A stretch of 35,229 nt of DNA from Candidatus Aenigmatarchaeota archaeon. Lineage in GTDB: Archaea > EX4484-52. Shown here in pieces: positions 604 to 28,754 of this stretch (position 1 is the stretch's first letter; the number at the start of each line of letters is the position of its first letter). The notes beneath the pieces were generated by a model, which saw only the letters and a list, made by a program, of their open reading frames with translations, was not told the DNA's origin and searched no databases. Location of the stretch: NCBI GenBank assembly GCA_023137195.1, contig JAGLPV010000032.1:1-35229 (forward strand). The letters are read 5' to 3'. Both the position numbers and the translations under genes were made by a program.

Positions 604-3600
604 ATGAAATCAAAAAAATATTTCCTGTCTTTTTTAATCATTTTAGTATTTGGATATTTTATATGGGCAAGCCCGACTATAATATTCGTCGACCCAACAC
701 CCTCGAATAATAATCATACATCCCACAACTGGGTATACATAAATATCACCTCTGGTGAAGACCTGAATCTGTCTTTGGTAGAATGGGGCAATTCTTCAGG
801 ATTTACTAATATTTCAATGAGTAATTCTTCAACAACAAACTGGTATGTAAATATAACCGATTTGTCAGATTATGCATATAATTACACTATTTTTGCTCAA
901 AATGCATCAGGGAGTTGGAATCAAAGTTATATAAGATACATCGCGGTTGATGCAGTTTCACCATATTATATAGATGGTTGTACAATCCTTAACAAATCCA
1001 ACTCAAAATATTATCTTACTACAGACATCATAAATGCAACAACTTCAAATTATGGTTGTCTTGATTTTGAAGATGGTTATAATATTACTCTTGACTGCCA
1101 GAACCATATTGTTGACGGCATCCAGGCAGATGGTACTGCTGGAATTTCTATAGTCCGTTTTGTTTCCGAGACTACAAACAACACTGTAAATAACTGTTAC
1201 TTATCTGATTGGAAAGATTATAATATTTATATATCCCTGTCTAATGGAAATAGTTTCAATAACATCACATCAACATCTGCAAGGATAGTTGGTATTATGA
1301 TGAGCGGATCGGATTACAACAACTTTACAAATGTAATTTCTTCATATACTGATATCCAAAGCGGTATTTATGTTGCATCTTCTGATTTCAACCGGTTCGT
1401 AAATGTTACAGCTAACTCAAATCCTGTAGGGGGTGTTCAATTAGGTGCTAGTGCAGTCTCAAATGTTTTCATAAACAGCACTTTCAACTCTAATGGTTAT
1501 CATGGCATATATCCATCTTATTCTGATTCAAATAATTTTACAGGCTGCACAGCGAACTATAATGTCCAATATGGTGCTTATTTATCTCGTGATTCAGACA
1601 ATAACATCATAAGAGATTCCACTTTCACAGGAAACCTACTTGGGGGTCTATATTTTGACGAGCTTAGCGGTGATGATCCTGAAAATAATCTGATATATAA
1701 CAATTTTTTCAATAATTCCGGAACCTATGGAAATATCCGTGTAGACAATAATATAATAAATGATAATTACATGAATACTACTAAAAAAATAGATGTCAAT
1801 ATATACAATTCTCTAAATCCGTATATCGGTGGAAATTATTATACAAATTCGACTGGTGATGATTTTTCAGATATTTGTGTTGATAGTGATTATGATGGTT
1901 TCTGTGATATAATCTATAATCACACTGTAGGATCTTCTGTTGTTATCGACTATCTTCCTTTGAGTGATGAATACATAGAAGGCTGGCCTTCTCCAACAAT
2001 AACAATCCAGTCCCCACTTAATCAAACATACAACACAAGCATAATCTGGTTCAACGTAACCCTAAACGAGCCAGGATCCTGGTGTGGTTATTCTTTGGAT
2101 GGTACCTCAAACAAGACAATGACAAATTCTTCCGGGAACTGGAACGCACAAAATAGTTCTATGACTAAAGGTTCCCATAATGTAATATTCTATTGCAATG
2201 ATACAGCAGGCAACATGAATAAGACAACATCCAGATACTTTGTAGTTAATGCAAGTGGACCTTTAATTTCAATAAATTCTCCAACTGCACAATCATATTC
2301 AACAAATATTATTAATTTGAACATTTCAATTACTGAACCCACTCTTGGATATACATGGTTCAACATAAATGATGGCTTCAATGATACACTATACAGATAT
2401 ATGTACCCTTTCTTTAGAGACAGTCATACAGAATCTGAAAATAATTGGTCTGAAGAATATGGAAATGGAGAAGTAATAATAAATCATATGGCAGATACGT
2501 CTGAAAGATGGTATGGAAATTCAAGCATAGCTTCCGGATTTATAGATAAGGGTGCTCATTCAGCTCCTTCTATATTTGAAAAAGATTCCATCTGGTATTG
2601 TATCACTGGTGATGCAGAGGGAAGAATTTTTGGTTATCAGTTAAATCAAACAAATTCTAAGTGGTATGAGAACGCAAGTATAGTTGCAGGACTTTCGGAT
2701 ATCGGAGATGACTCCACTCCTAATGTTTTTCAAAAGAACTCTACATGGTATTTAATTATGGGTGAAAAATGGGGTGCCCATTATGGCTATAACTGGACTG
2801 GCTCAACGTGGCAAAGTGATTCGTGTATAGTATCCGGATTAATAGATAAGGGTGGTTATTCGACACCAACAGTATATGAAAAAGATTCTAAATGGTATCT
2901 CATTTCAGGAGAGGTGGATGGTTTGTTTTATGGTTACCAATGGAATGAAACGAATTCAAGCTGGTATGAAAATACAAGTATAGTATCTGGACTTGTAGAT
3001 GTTGGCTCATTATCGTCACCAGTGGTATTTGAAAAAGACTCTGAATGGTATATGATTGCCGGTGAGAGTCATACAACATATAATGGTTACCAATGGAATG
3101 AAACGAATTCAAGCTGGTATGAAAATACAGGCATAATTTCAGGTATTGTCAGTAGTGGCTATTCAAAGCCCTCTGTTTATCTGAAAGATTCTATCCATTA
3201 TTTAATTCACGGAGTGATTTATGGTGGTCATTATGGTTTTCAATGGAATGTTCCAAATGATGAGATAACTCCTGTTGTGGGGGATTATTTTATAGGATTA
3301 AATAGAACCGGCTTAGGCACAATGGATTTAGTATATCACAAGTCTTATGATTTAAACTTAAATGCATCAAATTCAGAATTTATTGAATTTTGGTGGTATT
3401 CCACTGATGTTAGTGGGGATGATTATGGTGATGATTATATTTTACAAATATTCCTTTATACAACAAATAGTAGTAACTATTATAGAGAATCAAACAATAT
3501 AGGAGAAGATAACAATAATCCGAGAACTTGGAATCTTGCTCGTATAAACATATCTGCAATGACTACGACGGGAAGTCCATCTTTGGAAGATATAGATAGA

Positions 3601-22859: not shown

Positions 22860-23291
22860 TCATCCAAAAACAAAAATCAAAAACAGATACCTAAATAGCT
22901 TCCCGACAAATACAAAAAAAGCAAATGCCTTCAAATCAGACTTTACAAGCCCTGCAAACAATGTCAAAGCATCCCCTATGAGAGGAACCCATGAAAAAAA
23001 CAAGATAGGATTCCCATACTTGTCAAAGAGTCTTTTTGCTTTTTTTAGTTTTTCATCATCTGTCTTGATTACCCTGTGAAATATTGTTTTTCTACCCAGA
23101 CGACCCACATAATAGTTTGTAAGAGAGCCGAAAAAATTCCCGAAAGTCGCAACCATGAGTAGTAAGAACAAGTCAAGTGTTTGCGTATGGGCATATCCTG
23201 CCACAAGTACTTCGGAGCCAAATGGAAGGATAGTAGATGCAAGGAAAGACACTACAAACACATTTAGGTAATGATAGAATGCAGACAGCAT
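22860..23291 (-). CDS. DedA/YqaA family membrane protein (copy 1)
   Basis: SFLASTILPFGSE, GNFFGSLTNYYVG, SWVPLIGD, GKLFRY. Confidence 0.92.
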   Translation of the reverse strand: MLSAFYHYLNVFVVSFLASTILPFGSEVLVAGYAHTQTLDLFLLLMVATFGNFFGSLTNYYVGRLGRKTIFHRVIKTDDEKLKKAKRLFDKYGNPILFFSWVPLIGDALTLFAGLVKSDLKAFAFFVFVGKLFRYLFLIFVFG

Positions 23292-23343: not shown

Positions 23344-23775
23344 TTAGACTAAAGAATAAATCATGACAAAATAGACTACAAATTTGCCGACAAAAACAAA
23401 AAAAGCAAATGCCTTTATATCTGCCTTTACCAACCCAGCAACCAATGTAAGAGCATCTCCGAGGAAAGGAATAGTTGTAAGAAGTAATACAGGATTCCCG
23501 TATTTATCGAACACTTCTTTTGCTCTTTTCAATTTTTTCCTGTCTATTTTGATTATCCTTGAAAATATAGTTTTATGACCCAGGTAACCCACATAGTAGT
23601 TTGTAATAGAACCTAAAAAATTCCCTATTGTCGTGTTCATAAGCAGCAGGAATGGGTTCAGCTGTCCTGTATGTGCATATAATATCACAAGCGGTTCTGA
23701 ACCAAAGGGAAGAACTGTTGAAGCAAGAAAAGACATGATAAATACGTTGATGTGGAGATAAAATTCAGGAAACAT
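23344..23775 (-). CDS. DedA/YqaA family membrane protein (copy 2, tandem paralog)
   Basis: SFLASTVLPFGSE, GNFLGSITNYYVG, PFLGDAL; same 143-aa length as its neighbour. Confidence 0.9.
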   Translation of the reverse strand: MFPEFYLHINVFIMSFLASTVLPFGSEPLVILYAHTGQLNPFLLLMNTTIGNFLGSITNYYVGYLGHKTIFSRIIKIDRKKLKRAKEVFDKYGNPVLLLTTIPFLGDALTLVAGLVKADIKAFAFFVFVGKFVVYFVMIYSLV

Positions 23776-23832: not shown

Positions 23833-24870
23833 ATGAGTGTTGTGAAAAAAATACAGCTTCCAAAGCAGGTGCTTGTAGGAAACGATATTTTGGAAAATAT
23901 AGGTTCTATTCTATCAGAACTAAATACCGGCAAAAATATTGCAATTGTCTGTGGGCAAAGAACCAGGGATATTGTAGAAGAAAAAATAATTCCCTATTTG
24001 AAAAAAAGCAATGTGAAATATGAAATTTTCATGTGTGGTGAAAGTTCTGTCGAGCAAATAGAGTATATAAAAAATCAGGTGCAAAACAAATATAATCTTG
24101 TTTTCGGTGTAGGGGGAGGGAAAAACATAGATGTCGCAAAAGTGACAGCTCACGAACTAAATATTGATTTTATTTCAATACCTACTGCACCCACCCATGA
24201 CGGCATTGCCTCTTCCTTTGCCACCATCAAAAAAAGACAAAAGAAGTATTCTATTAAAACAAGACCGCCTCTTGCAATAATCTGTGATGTGGAAATCATA
24301 CAAAAAGCAGACAGGAGATTTTTTGCAAGTGGATTCTGCGATGCTTATTCGAACTTTATTGCAACTGCTGACTGGAATCTGGCAAAAAAAGACAATGATG
24401 AATATTTTGGAAATTATGCTTATGAACTTTCAAAAGTCTCATCACTCTTGGTTGCAAAAAACATAGACTCTATTATTGATAGGACATCGGATGGAACAAG
24501 AACACTGCTTGAGGCATTGATTAGCGGCGGCATTGCTATGGAGATTGCCGGCTCATCCCGCCCATGCTCTGGTTCTGAACACCTGTTTGCGCATGCCATG
24601 GGGGCTGAAAATATCAATCTTCTTCACGGGGAAGCTGTTGGTGTCGGAATGTTGGTTTGTGCATACCTTCATAAATACAACTGGCAGAATGTCAAAAAAA
24701 ATCTTAAAAAAGTAAACATCCCTTTGGACTTATTAAAGGACACAGAACGGATGAAAAAAATATTTGCGACTGCAAAACAAATGGGGATTGACAGAGGTAG
24801 GTACACGATCCTTGACAAGACAAAGGAAGAGGAATTTGTAGAGTGCCTTAATAAGGTCTGCAAAGAATAA
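23833..24870 (+). CDS. egsA: sn-glycerol-1-phosphate dehydrogenase
   Basis: GVGGGKNIDVAK, PTAPTHDGIAS, GSSRPCSGSEHLFAHA, LHGEAVG, RYTIL. Confidence 0.95.
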   Translation: MSVVKKIQLPKQVLVGNDILENIGSILSELNTGKNIAIVCGQRTRDIVEEKIIPYLKKSNVKYEIFMCGESSVEQIEYIKNQVQNKYNLVFGVGGGKNIDVAKVTAHELNIDFISIPTAPTHDGIASSFATIKKRQKKYSIKTRPPLAIICDVEIIQKADRRFFASGFCDAYSNFIATADWNLAKKDNDEYFGNYAYELSKVSSLLVAKNIDSIIDRTSDGTRTLLEALISGGIAMEIAGSSRPCSGSEHLFAHAMGAENINLLHGEAVGVGMLVCAYLHKYNWQNVKKNLKKVNIPLDLLKDTERMKKIFATAKQMGIDRGRYTILDKTKEEEFVECLNKVCKE

Positions 24871-24877
24871 CTGCTTA

Positions 24878-25453
24878 TTACATCCCTACTTCATCTGCAA
24901 TGGATTTCATTGATTCAAGTGCAATTTCTATAAATTCAGCACGGGATAATCCTGTTTTTTCTATATCATTTATCAGAGTCCTGTCTACATTTGCGGCAAA
25001 TGTCTTGTCCTTGATTTTTTTTGTGATTGATTTGACTTTTACATCCTTTATCTTTTTGTCCGGTCTCATCAATACATAGGCATAAATCAGTCCGGTTATA
25101 TTCTCAGCAGCAGAAAGGGCAAAATCCAGTTTGCTTTTTCGCTCTATATTTAGATGCCCGAGATGCTCTGTATGCGTTTTAATAGCATAAAACATTTCAG
25201 GGATGTTGTATCCCTCTTCTTCTAATATCGCACATGTTCTCATACCGTGTTCTTTATAATCTCCCGAAATGACATCCATATCAAGATCATGCAAAAGACC
25301 GGTTATTCCCCAGAAATCCACGTCCTCTTCAAAATGCTTTGCAAGCCCTCTCATTATGACTTCTGTTTCCCTGCTGTGATTTTTCAGATAGTCCTGCGTA
25401 ATGTATTTTTCCAGCAAGTCTCGTGCTTCTTCTATTGTAATTTTTGATTTCAT
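24878..25453 (-). CDS. HDIG/HD-domain metal-dependent phosphohydrolase
   Basis: LKNHS, WGITGLLHDLD, HG, KDKTFAANVDR; start overlaps the serA stop (ATGA). Confidence 0.85.
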   Translation of the reverse strand: MKSKITIEEARDLLEKYITQDYLKNHSRETEVIMRGLAKHFEEDVDFWGITGLLHDLDMDVISGDYKEHGMRTCAILEEEGYNIPEMFYAIKTHTEHLGHLNIERKSKLDFALSAAENITGLIYAYVLMRPDKKIKDVKVKSITKKIKDKTFAANVDRTLINDIEKTGLSRAEFIEIALESMKSIADEVGM

Positions 25454-26775
25454 ATGTTGTTGAAGTCGCCGTCAAATTTTGTTGCTTTTATACTCCTGTC
25501 ATCAATATAATGGTAATTTCCTCCCCTGGGCTTATTGAATAGAACATAATGGTATTTGAATTCATGTTTGGCAAGCCATTTTTCTGTAATTTTCTTCATG
25601 TCATCTGTTCTTGATGTGAAAAAAGTAATGATATGGCCCTGTTCATACCATTTGTTGACCCTGTCTTTTGCTCCGGGGATTTCAGCAGCAGTTTTCATAC
25701 GATCCTGTTCTTCATTCGGGACATCTTCGCATAGAACTCCATCTATATCGATGACATAATTCTTCAGTCCTGCGCGCAGCTTGGGGCTTGCCAATTTACC
25801 GTCTGTTGTTTTTTCAAATAAATCCTGTGATTCAGTTTCATTGACAACATTTACCAGGATTCCTTTTTTAAGACCGTCGATTATCTCATGCGCAACATCA
25901 ATCGCTACATTTTCCTGCGCCTCTATCGTTGTCGCGCCAATATGAGGCGTTGCAAGAACTTCGTCCATATCCATCAGACGGCTTTCAACAAATGGCTCAT
26001 TTATCCATACATCTATTGCCGCACTGTTCACTTTTTTGCTTTTTATTGCATCGTAAAGTGCATCTTCATTAATAAGCCCTCCTCTGCCGGCATTTATAAT
26101 TCGTACACCATCTTTCATCATTGCAATCTGCTCTTTATCAATTATATTTTTTGTGCTTTCTATCAGGTGCACATGAAGCGATACAAAATCAGACTCTTTC
26201 AACAGTTCGTTTAATTCAACTTTTTTGACATTAAGATGCCTCATGTAGTCTGCTTCGATAAAAGGATCGCACGCAATTACATTCATGTGCAGTCCATTGC
26301 AGATTCCTGCCACGATTTTTCCGACTTTTCCAAGACCGATAATGCCAAGAGTTTTTCCTTTTAATTCAATTCCCATGAATCTTTTTTTGTCCCATTTTTT
26401 CTCATGCTTCATGAAAATGTCTGCTTTATGGATATTTCTGGATAAAGTAAGAATCATTGCAACTGTATGCTCTGCAGCGGAATTTACATTGCCAAAAGGT
26501 GTATTCATAACTGCTATGCCTTTTCTTGTTGCCGCATCAATATTGATATTGTCGTAGCCGACCCCGGCCCTTCCGATGAGTTTAAGCTTTGACGCCTTTT
26601 CAATGATATTTTTTGTGATTTTTGTACCTCTTACAATTATTGCGTCATACTGGTCTATTATTTTTATTATTTCTTTCTCGCTCAAATCCGTCTTCACATC
26701 CACACTCATATCTTCTTCTGCATTTATCATGTCAACAGCAGTATGAGATACCGTATCTAATATAATTACTTTCAT
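25450..26775 (-). CDS. serA: D-3-phosphoglycerate dehydrogenase fused to a C-terminal HAD-family phosphatase
   Basis: GRAGVGYDNI, GIIGLGKVG, INAGRGG, PHIGATTIEAQ; then DIDGVL...FFTSR...NKPRGG...YIDD. Confidence 0.9.
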   Translation of the reverse strand: MKVIILDTVSHTAVDMINAEEDMSVDVKTDLSEKEIIKIIDQYDAIIVRGTKITKNIIEKASKLKLIGRAGVGYDNINIDAATRKGIAVMNTPFGNVNSAAEHTVAMILTLSRNIHKADIFMKHEKKWDKKRFMGIELKGKTLGIIGLGKVGKIVAGICNGLHMNVIACDPFIEADYMRHLNVKKVELNELLKESDFVSLHVHLIESTKNIIDKEQIAMMKDGVRIINAGRGGLINEDALYDAIKSKKVNSAAIDVWINEPFVESRLMDMDEVLATPHIGATTIEAQENVAIDVAHEIIDGLKKGILVNVVNETESQDLFEKTTDGKLASPKLRAGLKNYVIDIDGVLCEDVPNEEQDRMKTAAEIPGAKDRVNKWYEQGHIITFFTSRTDDMKKITEKWLAKHEFKYHYVLFNKPRGGNYHYIDDRSIKATKFDGDFNNI

Positions 26776-26786
26776 TTTATTCCTCC

Positions 26787-27893
26787 TTAAATATAATTTT
26801 GAAGTTCATTTAGATAATTCGCTAAATCTTCTTCCTGGATGTCTCCCATATGAGCAATCCGGAATGTTGTCTGTTTGCCATCTTCGTTTAGTTTTTCATT
26901 TAATTTCCTATATCCTGTGTCGAACAAATACCCTTTGTTTCCTATTTTTTGCTTGACGGCTTTAAGGTCAATGTTTTTAGTGTTTATTATACACGATACA
27001 GTATCTGACTCATATCCTGCTTCAGGAAACATTTCCATACCTCTTTTTTTTGCCCATGTTCTTGTCATCATTGCCATTTGCCTGTGCCTATTAAACCTGT
27101 TTTCCAGTCCTTCTTCATTTAAGATGTAATCCGTCTGCCTGTCAAGAGCATATAGATGAGAGATTGAAGGGGTGTATGGAGTTTGGTTTTTGTCATAGCT
27201 TTTTTTTAGTTCCAGCAGATCAAAATAATACCCGCGTCCCTTTATTGTTTTTGCCTTGTCGTATGCTTTTTGGCTAACTGATGCCAGCGCAATACCAGAG
27301 GGCAGTGCCACTGCCTTTTGACCGGATGTAAGACAAATATCTATTCCTAGCTTGTCCACTTCAATTTTTGTCCCGCCAAGCGAACTGACGGCATCTACTA
27401 AAAACAATACATCTGGATATTTTTTCATGACTTCTGAGATTTCTTTAAGAGGATTTAAAAGCCCTGTTGAGGTTTCGCAATGGGTTATGCATACAGCATC
27501 ATATTCATTGCTGCTGAGTTTTTCATCTATCCTTTCCGGCTTTATTGCAGAACCCCATTCAACATCAATTTTTTCTGCTTCTTTTCCACAGGCAAGAGCA
27601 ATACTATGCCATTTTTTGCCAAATGCTCCGCAAACGCAATTGAGAACTTTTTTTGAAACGCAGTTTCTGATAGACGCTTCCATGAATCCTGAGCCAGAGG
27701 ATGTAGAAATTAGGCAATCGTTTTGGGTATAAAATAATTGTTGAAGCTTTGGCTTTATCCGACCAAATAGCTGACCAAATTCTTCTGTCCTGTGACCTAT
27801 CATTGGCTTTGACATTTCATCTAAAATTTCTGCCCGGACTTCTGTGGGTCCAGGGATAAAAAGTTTTTTGCCAGACATATAGATTTGTGACAT
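26787..27893 (-). CDS. Class V PLP aminotransferase (archaeal phosphoserine / serine-pyruvate aminotransferase type)
   Basis: FIPGPTEV, THCETSTG, VDAVSSLGG, SGQKA (PLP Lys), FRIAHMG; immediately upstream of serA. Confidence 0.9.
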   Translation of the reverse strand: MSQIYMSGKKLFIPGPTEVRAEILDEMSKPMIGHRTEEFGQLFGRIKPKLQQLFYTQNDCLISTSSGSGFMEASIRNCVSKKVLNCVCGAFGKKWHSIALACGKEAEKIDVEWGSAIKPERIDEKLSSNEYDAVCITHCETSTGLLNPLKEISEVMKKYPDVLFLVDAVSSLGGTKIEVDKLGIDICLTSGQKAVALPSGIALASVSQKAYDKAKTIKGRGYYFDLLELKKSYDKNQTPYTPSISHLYALDRQTDYILNEEGLENRFNRHRQMAMMTRTWAKKRGMEMFPEAGYESDTVSCIINTKNIDLKAVKQKIGNKGYLFDTGYRKLNEKLNEDGKQTTFRIAHMGDIQEEDLANYLNELQNYI

Positions 27894-28016: not shown

Positions 28017-28754
28017 ATGGTAAAAAATAATAGAACTGAAGTCTATATTACAGAGAAATTAAAGCAGGGAAAACCACTTCATTTTACTTTACTTGATCCG
28101 GAAACGCTTAACACAAAAGAAGAGATAAAAAAGTGCATTGATTTTAAGACAGATGCATTTATGCTGGGCGGTTCTTTGAAAATAAATGAGGAGTATGCAA
28201 AAAATATGGTAAAGGCAATCAAGTCAATTGACCGGAACCTTCCGGTAATTTCTTTTCCAGGCAATACAAATGGTGTTTTTGATTGCGTAGATGCTGTTTT
28301 TTTTATGTCTTTGCTTAATTCAACAAACCCATATTGGATAACCGGAGCCCAGGCAATAAGTGCTTTTGATATAAAAACAAAGAAAATAGAGACGCTTTCT
28401 ATGGCATATATTATAATTGAACCGGGAGAGACTGTTGCATTTATTGGTGATGCAAAACCAATCCCTAGAAAAAAGCCGGAAATCGCATGTGCTTATGCAC
28501 TTTCAGCTCAATACATGGGCTTTAGTCTGGTATATTTTGAGGCAGGTTCGGGGGCAGATGAATCTGTGCCTCCAAAAATGATTGCCATGGCAAAAAAAAC
28601 AATAGATGTTCCTTTGATTGTTGGTGGAGGGATAAGAACCCCCGAAGCTGCAAAAGAAAAAGTGCTTGCGGGAGCAGATATTATAGTTACGGGAAATATT
28701 GTTGAAGACAACATAAACAGGTTGAAAGACATAATTAGTGTGATAAAAGAATGA
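28017..28754 (+). CDS. Geranylgeranylglyceryl phosphate synthase (group II)
   Basis: HFTLLDP, MLGGS, FPG, MSLLNSTNPYWITGAQ, YFEAGSGA, VGGGIR, GADIIVTG. Confidence 0.95.
   Translation: MVKNNRTEVYITEKLKQGKPLHFTLLDPETLNTKEEIKKCIDFKTDAFMLGGSLKINEEYAKNMVKAIKSIDRNLPVISFPGNTNGVFDCVDAVFFMSLLNSTNPYWITGAQAISAFDIKTKKIETLSMAYIIIEPGETVAFIGDAKPIPRKKPEIACAYALSAQYMGFSLVYFEAGSGADESVPPKMIAMAKKTIDVPLIVGGGIRTPEAAKEKVLAGADIIVTGNIVEDNINRLKDIISVIKE

Follow-up and report, generated by a model that had tools for sequence, protein, structure and literature searches.

A SerA-HAD fusion in an aenigmatarchaeal genome and a candidate capless type of phosphoserine phosphatase

The phosphorylated pathway of serine biosynthesis needs SerA, SerC and SerB, and the classical SerB, the phosphoserine phosphatase (PSP), is a HAD protein with a cap. 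A contig of a Candidatus Aenigmatarchaeota archaeon (JAGLPV010000032.1 of assembly GCA_023137195.1; the whole stretch of 35,229 nucleotides analyzed is called here the window) raises the question of what may carry out the third step, as a single gene joins the catalytic core of SerA (phosphoglycerate dehydrogenase, PGDH) to a small HAD domain that is not SerB. The source genome (G000) has 1.42 Mb in 57 contigs and is 85% complete. An earlier note on this DNA had read the gene as a “Rosetta stone” fusion assigning SerB activity to the HAD family. On the basis of comparative genomics we consider it probable, at roughly 70%, that the HAD domain represents a PSP of a new type without a cap, that the 441 amino acid (aa) protein catalyzes two reactions of the phosphorylated serine pathway and that the HAD family substitutes for SerB. 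The family is found where SerB is missing in many bacteria and is therefore probably a new form of that enzyme. What appears to be new is a family for a known reaction, together with the fusion architecture. The features on which the argument depends are the following, all on the reverse strand:

26787-27893 (-): class V aminotransferase, serC-like, first gene of the operon; open reading frame (ORF) of 368 aa, Aminotran_5 PF00266 at 2.8e-26
25450-26775 (-): SerA-HAD fusion ORF, 441 aa, 11 nt downstream of the aminotransferase gene
25831-26775 (-): SerA catalytic core, aa 1-315, with substrate-binding and NAD-binding domains and without ASB or ACT
25765-25830 (-): linker, aa 316-337, matching the N-terminal extension of stand-alone members of the HAD family
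25453-25764 (-): capless (C0) HAD phosphatase domain, aa 338-441, candidate phosphoserine phosphatase
25747-25749, 25741-25743, 25615-25617, 25531-25533 and 25501-25503 (-): codons of the HAD motif residues D343, D345, T387, K415 and D425, in that order

The fused protein and its junction

The Pfam matches of the 441-aa protein were 2-Hacid_dh_C (3.7e-57, aa 105-280) and 2-Hacid_dh (3e-35, aa 3-312), and the Pfam scan found no ACT or ASB domain in it. The PGDH model TIGR01327 gave 397.8 bits on the SerA part, over profile positions 1-314 of 525, against 216 bits for the next family, glyoxylate reductase; the SerA part does not reach the whole-protein cut-off of 454 bits, which spans ASB and ACT. 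Positions 315-525 are unmatched, so that the fusion protein has no counterpart to the regulatory C-terminal half of the model. The best solved relatives of the core are all PGDHs (6plf, 5e-68; the core-only archaeal 1wwk, 9e-66). It ends at LVNVVN near 25834-25851, in agreement with the position of about 25840 given by the earlier note, and over its own full length matches the core-only (type III) archaeal PGDHs 1wwk and 2ekl, which stop where the linker and the HAD domain start in the fusion. The nearest SerA homologs are likewise core-only DPANN archaeal proteins (309-324 aa, 53-68% identity). Other proteins thus share the lack of ACT; the bifunctional enzyme without ACT proposed before stands as far as the missing domain goes, but not as something special to the fusion.

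The C-terminal domain passed a single Pfam model, PF24694 (LNS2_PITM1-3; 41 bits, E 2.2e-10, cut-off 27.7; aa 341-415, profile positions 2-72 of 124), that of the LNS2 domain of Nir2/PITPNM. The eukaryotic domains of this kind, those of lipins included, are parts of large proteins and act on phosphatidic acid, which they bind or hydrolyse. The four HAD motifs, which had been noticed before, are indeed intact: motif I is D-I-D-G-V at aa 343-347, and motifs II to IV are represented by FFTSR (T387), NKPRGG (K415) and IDD (D425, D426), with PNEE also present. In an alignment of 121 family members D28, D30 and G31 are invariant, as are T72 and K100, and D110 is at least 90% conserved (the last three correspond to aa 387, 415 and 425). 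The linker corresponds to the N-terminal extension of stand-alone members with its conserved G-K-x-x-S-P-x-L, in which S15 and P16 of the family alignment are invariant.

The structure predicted from the 121 sequences (predicted local distance difference test, pLDDT, 86.8) had only HAD phosphatases among its top structural matches, with Z up to 13.2, as expected of the Rossmann-like fold of that superfamily. The nearest fold was the capless phage phosphatase AfhF (9iqw; Z 13.2, root-mean-square deviation 2.1, 98 of 123 residues aligned), followed by Vibrio VC0232 (1xpj; Z 11.7, 96 of 124 residues), the 3'-phosphatase of T4 Pnkp (Z 9.9) and the LNS2 of Nir2 (Z 8.7). The whole domain has about 105 aa, with no cap inserted after motif I or between motifs II and III, and can be aligned to the capless AfhF and 1xpj, which places it in the capless (C0) class; in fold terms, as judged from the predicted model, it is a minimal C0 HAD and not SerB. 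AfhF (a D-arabinose 1,5-diphosphate phosphatase), VC0232 and the TIGR01689 family share this minimal architecture and size, with 22-24% identity for AfhF and 1xpj, but the HMMER alignments, as far as they go, show neither the PNEE nor the KPRGGNYH signature in them. TIGR01689, the EcbF-BcbF capsule phosphatase model, gave 21.7 bits, below its cut-off of 162. The classical SerB (HAD-IB with a C1 cap; TIGR00338; Methanocaldococcus jannaschii PSP 1f5s/1l7m) belongs to the same superfamily, has the same four motifs and catalyzes the reaction proposed here. However, it carries a helical cap, and TIGR00338 (cut-off 144.15 bits) had no match to the C-terminal 126 aa at E≤0.1. The capless build and the distant PSP fold match mean that substrate recognition must differ from that of SerB.

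A first concern is whether the single frame is real. In a sister species of the same genus (G001) the genes come in the same order, serC (373 aa), a serA core of 315 aa and HAD, with 69% identity to the source genome in SerA and 74% in the aminotransferase, but there the TGA stop of serA overlaps the ATG of a separate HAD gene (ATGA). The DNA alignment of the two junctions shows a one-nucleotide indel just after the VVN codons: an extra base in the window near 25839 merges the serA and HAD frames. The frame could thus be an artefact of assembly or sequencing, a false one-base insertion or a chimeric join, with two genes in reality as in the sister species. The difference of a single base and the low depth of about 6 fit this, and the evidence consists of compared contigs, both from one study. 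Against this, the extra base is not in a homopolymer, and independently assembled contigs from two samples span 25300-26400 without an indel, one with 0 differences (possibly from the source sample itself) and the other with 2 substitutions elsewhere; in two runs from other studies the junction was not covered. The protein cluster of the fusion also has 7 member sequences. An artefact is therefore very improbable, the chimeric join that would have undermined the earlier note is not indicated, and we take the SerA-HAD fusion as real as far as contigs can show. Even if the ORF were split, a translationally coupled operon and the comparative evidence would remain.

Distribution of the HAD family and of SerB

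With the C-terminal 126 aa as query we found 7165 stand-alone proteins of 120-150 aa at E≤0.001 among 7166 candidates (best 2e-54), a lower bound for a large and highly conserved family of more than 7165 clusters. The stand-alone homologs had 57-69% identity and occur in archaea (DPANN and others), in Patescibacteria, in Bacteroidota and in further groups. Those with a name are labelled “phosphoheptose isomerase”, “HAD family acid phosphatase” or “hypothetical”, which bears out what the earlier note said of Bacteroidota homologs under the first of these labels, and nearly all family members carry a precomputed PF24694 label. Among phage records there was one homolog, from a cyanophage, 33% identical and again labelled “phosphoheptose isomerase”. 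The Atlas search returned only the family's own clusters.

A strong indication of function comes from the distribution against SerB, for which the earlier note had predicted an anti-correlation; the outcome was strongly positive. Among 101 genomes of one flavobacterial family, HAD was present in 42 and a SerB-like protein in another 42 (20 true SerB and 22 SerB-SerA fusions of about 630 aa), with none having both and 17 having neither. The uncorrected Fisher p was 1.1e-14, a value that overstates the case because genomes of one family are kin. Kinship was taken into account by an RpoB tree (FastTree) of 97 full-length rows out of 99 fetched, the partial sequences of G684 and G685 having been dropped and G621 and G686 having given no match. 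Along this tree HAD and SerB each change at least 15 times, and the three states are finely interleaved (36 runs). In 10 independent pairs on supported branches SerB changed opposite to HAD in about 6, the same way in 0 and stayed as it was in about 4 (sign test with p between 0.016 and 0.06, median 0.031). A wider sample of 251 Bacteroidota genomes contained 13 with HAD and 94 with a SerB-like protein (74 above cut-off), again none with both, and 144 with neither; SerC was present in all 13 HAD genomes. SerB above cut-off was absent from all 39 further HAD genomes of other families, and in a separate check SerB was missing in 5 of 5 HAD genomes.

The SerB-SerA fusions (for example L120 460-2367 (+) and L121 332-2215 (-)), found also in about 9 of the 251 Bacteroidota genomes, join an N-terminal HAD-IB domain to an E. 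coli-type SerA with ACT (NF008759, 658 bits). They resemble the archaeal protein in having a HAD phosphatase and a PGDH in one polypeptide, but in the latter the HAD domain is C-terminal, capless and attached to a core-only SerA. They therefore provide a precedent for fusing the first step of the pathway with the third.

The archaeal sample comprised 42 genomes of the source phylum, belonging to one order, of which 4 had HAD. Genus g6 has a long SerA (frames of 528-561 aa), a serC-like gene in 6 of 8 genomes, true SerB in all 8 (254-268 bits) and HAD in none, while in the genus of the source (g1; G000, G001) serC and core SerA are accompanied by HAD, and no SerB reaches the cut-off. The source phylum repeats the either/or pattern of HAD and SerB. 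In a second DPANN phylum HAD appeared in 3 of 301 genomes, a sample underpowered for co-occurrence.

The gap in the source genome is not absolute, because it encodes at least 8 HAD_2 proteins and, in addition, a HAD-IB protein that resembles SerB but is divergent; a search there for His_Phos_1 proteins gave none. The HAD-IB protein scored 125.9 bits against the TIGR00338 cut-off of 144.15 and aligns end to end with the M. jannaschii PSP (2e-24). Its cap lacks the conserved stretch common to the SerBs of g6, it carries a Cys-rich insert, and its motif IV reads G-N-G-T-S-D in each of the three g1 genomes, the first Asp being replaced by Asn (for the roles of motif IV and cap residues we follow general knowledge of HAD-IB proteins). 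Its gene (contig C7, locus L001, 1507-2190 (+)) overlaps by 4 nt an ORF at 836-1510 (+) in an arrangement kept in three genomes of the genus. This neighbouring ORF of 224 aa consists of the N-terminal glutamine amidotransferase domain of GlmS alone (272 bits, profile positions 1-216 of 601).

The order of the steps depends on the aminotransferase, which the fusion gene directly follows, as had been reported. Its best solved relative is 2dr1, a “hypothetical serine aminotransferase” (1.7e-61). Of the curated serC models, serC_3 gave 84.5 bits (cut-off 401.65) and serC_1 26 bits, both short of a match; the protein belongs to the AGXT-like class V enzymes, and its nearest kin are serine-glyoxylate and serine-pyruvate aminotransferases. 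Another order of reactions can accordingly be imagined: the HAD domain would dephosphorylate 3-phosphohydroxypyruvate to hydroxypyruvate, an AGXT-family aminotransferase would convert this to serine, and a fusion of consecutive steps would pull the unfavourable dehydrogenase forward. Besides the affinities of the aminotransferase, this has in its favour that fused enzymes often catalyze consecutive steps, and the complementarity with SerB would follow as well. Nevertheless, orthologs with 58-61% identity work beside a true SerB in the sister genus g6, and because they accompany that enzyme the product is likely to be phosphoserine. Moreover, the flavobacteria of HAD type keep a SerC of the bacterial phosphoserine aminotransferase family (the 13 of 13 mentioned above), and the SerB-SerA fusions show that non-consecutive steps get fused. 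We regard the hydroxypyruvate route as quite unlikely. A serC-like function is implied by the co-occurrence of the orthologs with true SerB, together with work reportedly done on a Methanocaldococcus aminotransferase.

Gene neighbourhoods and other fusions

We examined 155 loci of stand-alone HAD genes (80 from genomes and 75 from metagenomes, with flanks of 4-6 kb), and two further loci. The linkage of homologs to serA and serC that the earlier note had expected did not materialize: a serC-like gene was near HAD in 0 of 80 and 0 of 75 loci, and a SerA-like dehydrogenase (34% identity) in 2 of 80 and 0 of 75. A SerB-like gene was likewise found in none of the 155. With just two weak SerA-like matches the neighbourhood is not supporting evidence for a serine role, and since only this genus has members of the family next to serA or serC, the “Rosetta stone” comes down to one event in one lineage. 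The fusion itself is backed by the serC-serA-HAD operon of the sister species. Clustering of conserved neighbours revealed no recurrent metabolic partner outside a flavobacterial array, and the genes around HAD are diverse, including GAPDH/PEPCK and PGI.

That array does connect HAD with SerB. In the HAD loci (L018-L097) the gene lies between the FeS (43 of 80) and CCG (41 of 80) genes of an array of amidase, MlaD, FeS, CCG and 161-aa genes. True SerB in Flavobacteriaceae was within 6 kb of the same array in 10 out of 10 loci (L302-L311), and in 8 of them directly downstream of the 161-aa gene (in L302 the serB ORF starts 4 nt after it). In one of the others serB lies between the 161-aa and CCG genes, and in another only the amidase, MlaD and part of FeS were in range. 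The spacing between FeS and CCG in these serB loci was 23-383 nt (measured in 6 of the 10). A true SerB query had no match in the 80 HAD loci, and the 6 SerB-SerA fusion loci examined are outside this array. In Flavobacteriaceae, serB and HAD thus seem to be alternatives for a single locus, and recombination may have exchanged them.

Fusions of the HAD domain are rare. Among proteins of 242-772 aa it was found in just 6 clusters: the SerA-HAD of the window, a PyrI fusion, two proteins extended otherwise at the N-terminus, one that contains a LAGLIDADG intein and a partial “tRNA ligase”. In protein P0003 (285 aa) HAD precedes PyrI, the regulatory chain of aspartate carbamoyltransferase; P0004 (320 aa) has HAD and an N-terminal extension of about 190 aa without Pfam label; in P0006, a metagenome protein of 488 aa, the intein directly follows the catalytic D-I-D-G-V-V. 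No other SerA-HAD fusion was found among the 120 nearest SerA relatives, nor among the best 150 of 1.84 billion representatives.

Other features of the window near the fusion gene are:

24878-25453 (-): HD-domain phosphohydrolase, 191 aa (PF01966, 6.6e-07)
23833-24870 (+): Fe-ADH similar to glycerol-1-phosphate dehydrogenase, flanking the serine operon
28017-28754 (+): PcrB/GGGP synthase, flanking the serine operon

The ATG of the HD gene overlaps the stop of the fusion gene (ATGA), so that the two are translationally coupled and the HD gene is probably the third of the operon. An HD protein is also encoded near HAD in a Woesearchaeota locus (L020), but its kinship to that of the window is only at the level of the domain. 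The flanking genes code for both first enzymes of archaeal lipid backbone synthesis, which could hint at a link of serine supply to lipids with serine headgroups. The window also has two tandem paralogous ORFs of 143 aa each, at 22860-23291 (-) and 23344-23775 (-), hydrophobic and similar to membrane proteins. A promoter and terminator scan of the region, of a type ill-suited to archaea, gave matches at the level of shuffled sequence.

The substrate of the HAD domain and what it would mean

HAD and SerB share no genome among the 101 flavobacterial ones, switch often among relatives and do so within one array, a pattern that functional equivalence would explain best. Taken with the archaeal serC-serA-HAD operon and fusion, the most economical reading is that HAD hydrolyses phosphoserine. 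The N-terminal SerA core would then oxidise 3-phosphoglycerate to 3-phosphohydroxypyruvate, the upstream aminotransferase would convert this to O-phospho-L-serine, and the C-terminal capless HAD would hydrolyse the latter to serine. By general HAD chemistry, Asp343 would be the nucleophile, forming an aspartyl-phosphate intermediate, and Asp345 the acid/base; Thr387 and Lys415 would hold the phosphoryl group, and Asp425 and Asp426 the Mg2+. The amino and carboxylate groups may be bound by the acidic P-N-E-E loop, which is invariant, by Arg389 and by the K-P-R-G-G-N-Y-H loop.

Several observations weigh against a phosphoserine phosphatase and would suit a phosphatase with a housekeeping role and a different substrate, be it a sugar bisphosphate, a nucleotide or a lipid phosphate. 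Its gene would have landed behind serA by chance, and in a compact genome an indel of one base would have joined the two, while the HAD-IB or a HAD_2 protein would hydrolyse phosphoserine. The nearest solved structures are the sugar bisphosphate phosphatase AfhF, the uncharacterised Vibrio protein and polynucleotide 3'-phosphatases, with the LNS2 of Nir2 following, while the M. jannaschii PSP appears only at rank 48 in Foldseek and is not among the best 50 rows of VIA-align. The at least 8 HAD_2 proteins of the source genome could supply PSP activity, alongside its SerB-like protein. The near absence of serA and serC from the 155 neighbourhoods and the diversity of the contexts point the same way, and the other fusions tie the domain to PyrI or to an intein inserted at the DIDG motif. 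A distant subgroup (38-53% identity, over residues 25-117 only) adjoins dUTPase, ThyX and dCMP deaminase genes. The HAD genomes G031 (83% complete) and G007 (78%), both of the source phylum, have no detectable SerA or serC-like gene, and the same is true of G296 and G297; in G299 and G300, two genomes of the candidate phyla radiation (CPR), nothing closer than a generic 2-hydroxyacid dehydrogenase is present. Of 5 non-Bacteroidota HAD genomes outside the source phylum, one has a plausible SerA core and a serC-like gene. As to the exclusion itself, a SerB-SerA fusion stands beside HAD in 2 of the 39 further HAD genomes (G721 and G736, the genomes of L058 and L092), although the 10.2 Mb assembly of G721 may be a mixed bin; and the 144 of 251 Bacteroidota with neither gene mean that other PSPs must exist. 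Finally, ATGA overlaps are common in the operon, the HD gene having one too.

A housekeeping role would leave unexplained, however, why HAD and SerB exclude each other in 101 related genomes in spite of at least 15 switches, why they replace each other in one conserved array and why the source phylum has the same either/or pattern. We therefore think it unlikely, without being negligible, and retain phosphoserine as the probable substrate; the SerB activity claimed for the family from the outset is supported by comparative genomics, while the SerB-like HAD-IB and HAD_2 proteins of the source genome tell against it. The family need not be uniform in function and may differ in the distant subgroup near nucleotide genes and in tiny genomes without SerA or SerC. 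The metagenome loci of that subgroup (L175-L195) also show Dam methylase genes, in a context that looks viral.

Replacement of SerB by non-orthologous enzymes is not without precedent. Three PSP types are distinguished, the classical HAD, a histidine phosphatase (Hydrogenobacter) and the HAD-like TT_C1695 of Thermus (bioRxiv 10.1101/2023.03.10.532031), and YsaA of B. subtilis and a predicted “SerB4” are given as further PSPs, with 450 gut genomes lacking any known variant (PMC9026213). Like the family proposed here they are precedents for non-orthologous displacement of SerB, but they have different folds or are capped HADs, TT_C1695 being set apart by its description. Other papers report that SerB is missing from several Flavobacteriales genomes, with HisB proposed as substitute (PMC9603385), list unfilled SerB gaps (PMC5764234, PMC7311316), describe an oomycete PGDH-PSAT fusion (PMC2705460) and name a sugar bisphosphate as the substrate of the AfhF type (PMC13326640). 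Our literature search, which covered neither subscription journals nor supplements, found no paper giving a function for the HAD family.

PSP is among the most frequent unexplained gaps in reconstructions of amino acid biosynthesis, and a named candidate with an either/or pattern against SerB makes that gap testable. With somewhat less assurance than for the activity itself, we favour the view that these capless, LNS2-like HAD proteins (about 140 aa, wrongly labelled “phosphoheptose isomerase”) form a widespread PSP class of their own that has displaced SerB many times (in Flavobacteriaceae by exchange of alternative genes within one array) and accounts for the lack of SerB in many Flavobacteriales, in Saprospirales and in some archaea. 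The SerA-HAD protein would be its only known fusion of this kind and would give a two-gene serine pathway. If this is true, thousands of “phosphoheptose isomerase” and “acid phosphatase” labels would be corrected, and predictions of auxotrophy would improve for marine and freshwater Bacteroidota and for small archaea. It would also give insight into how a capless HAD recognises a small amino acid phosphate and provide a case in which analogous genes, two in number, take turns at a single locus.

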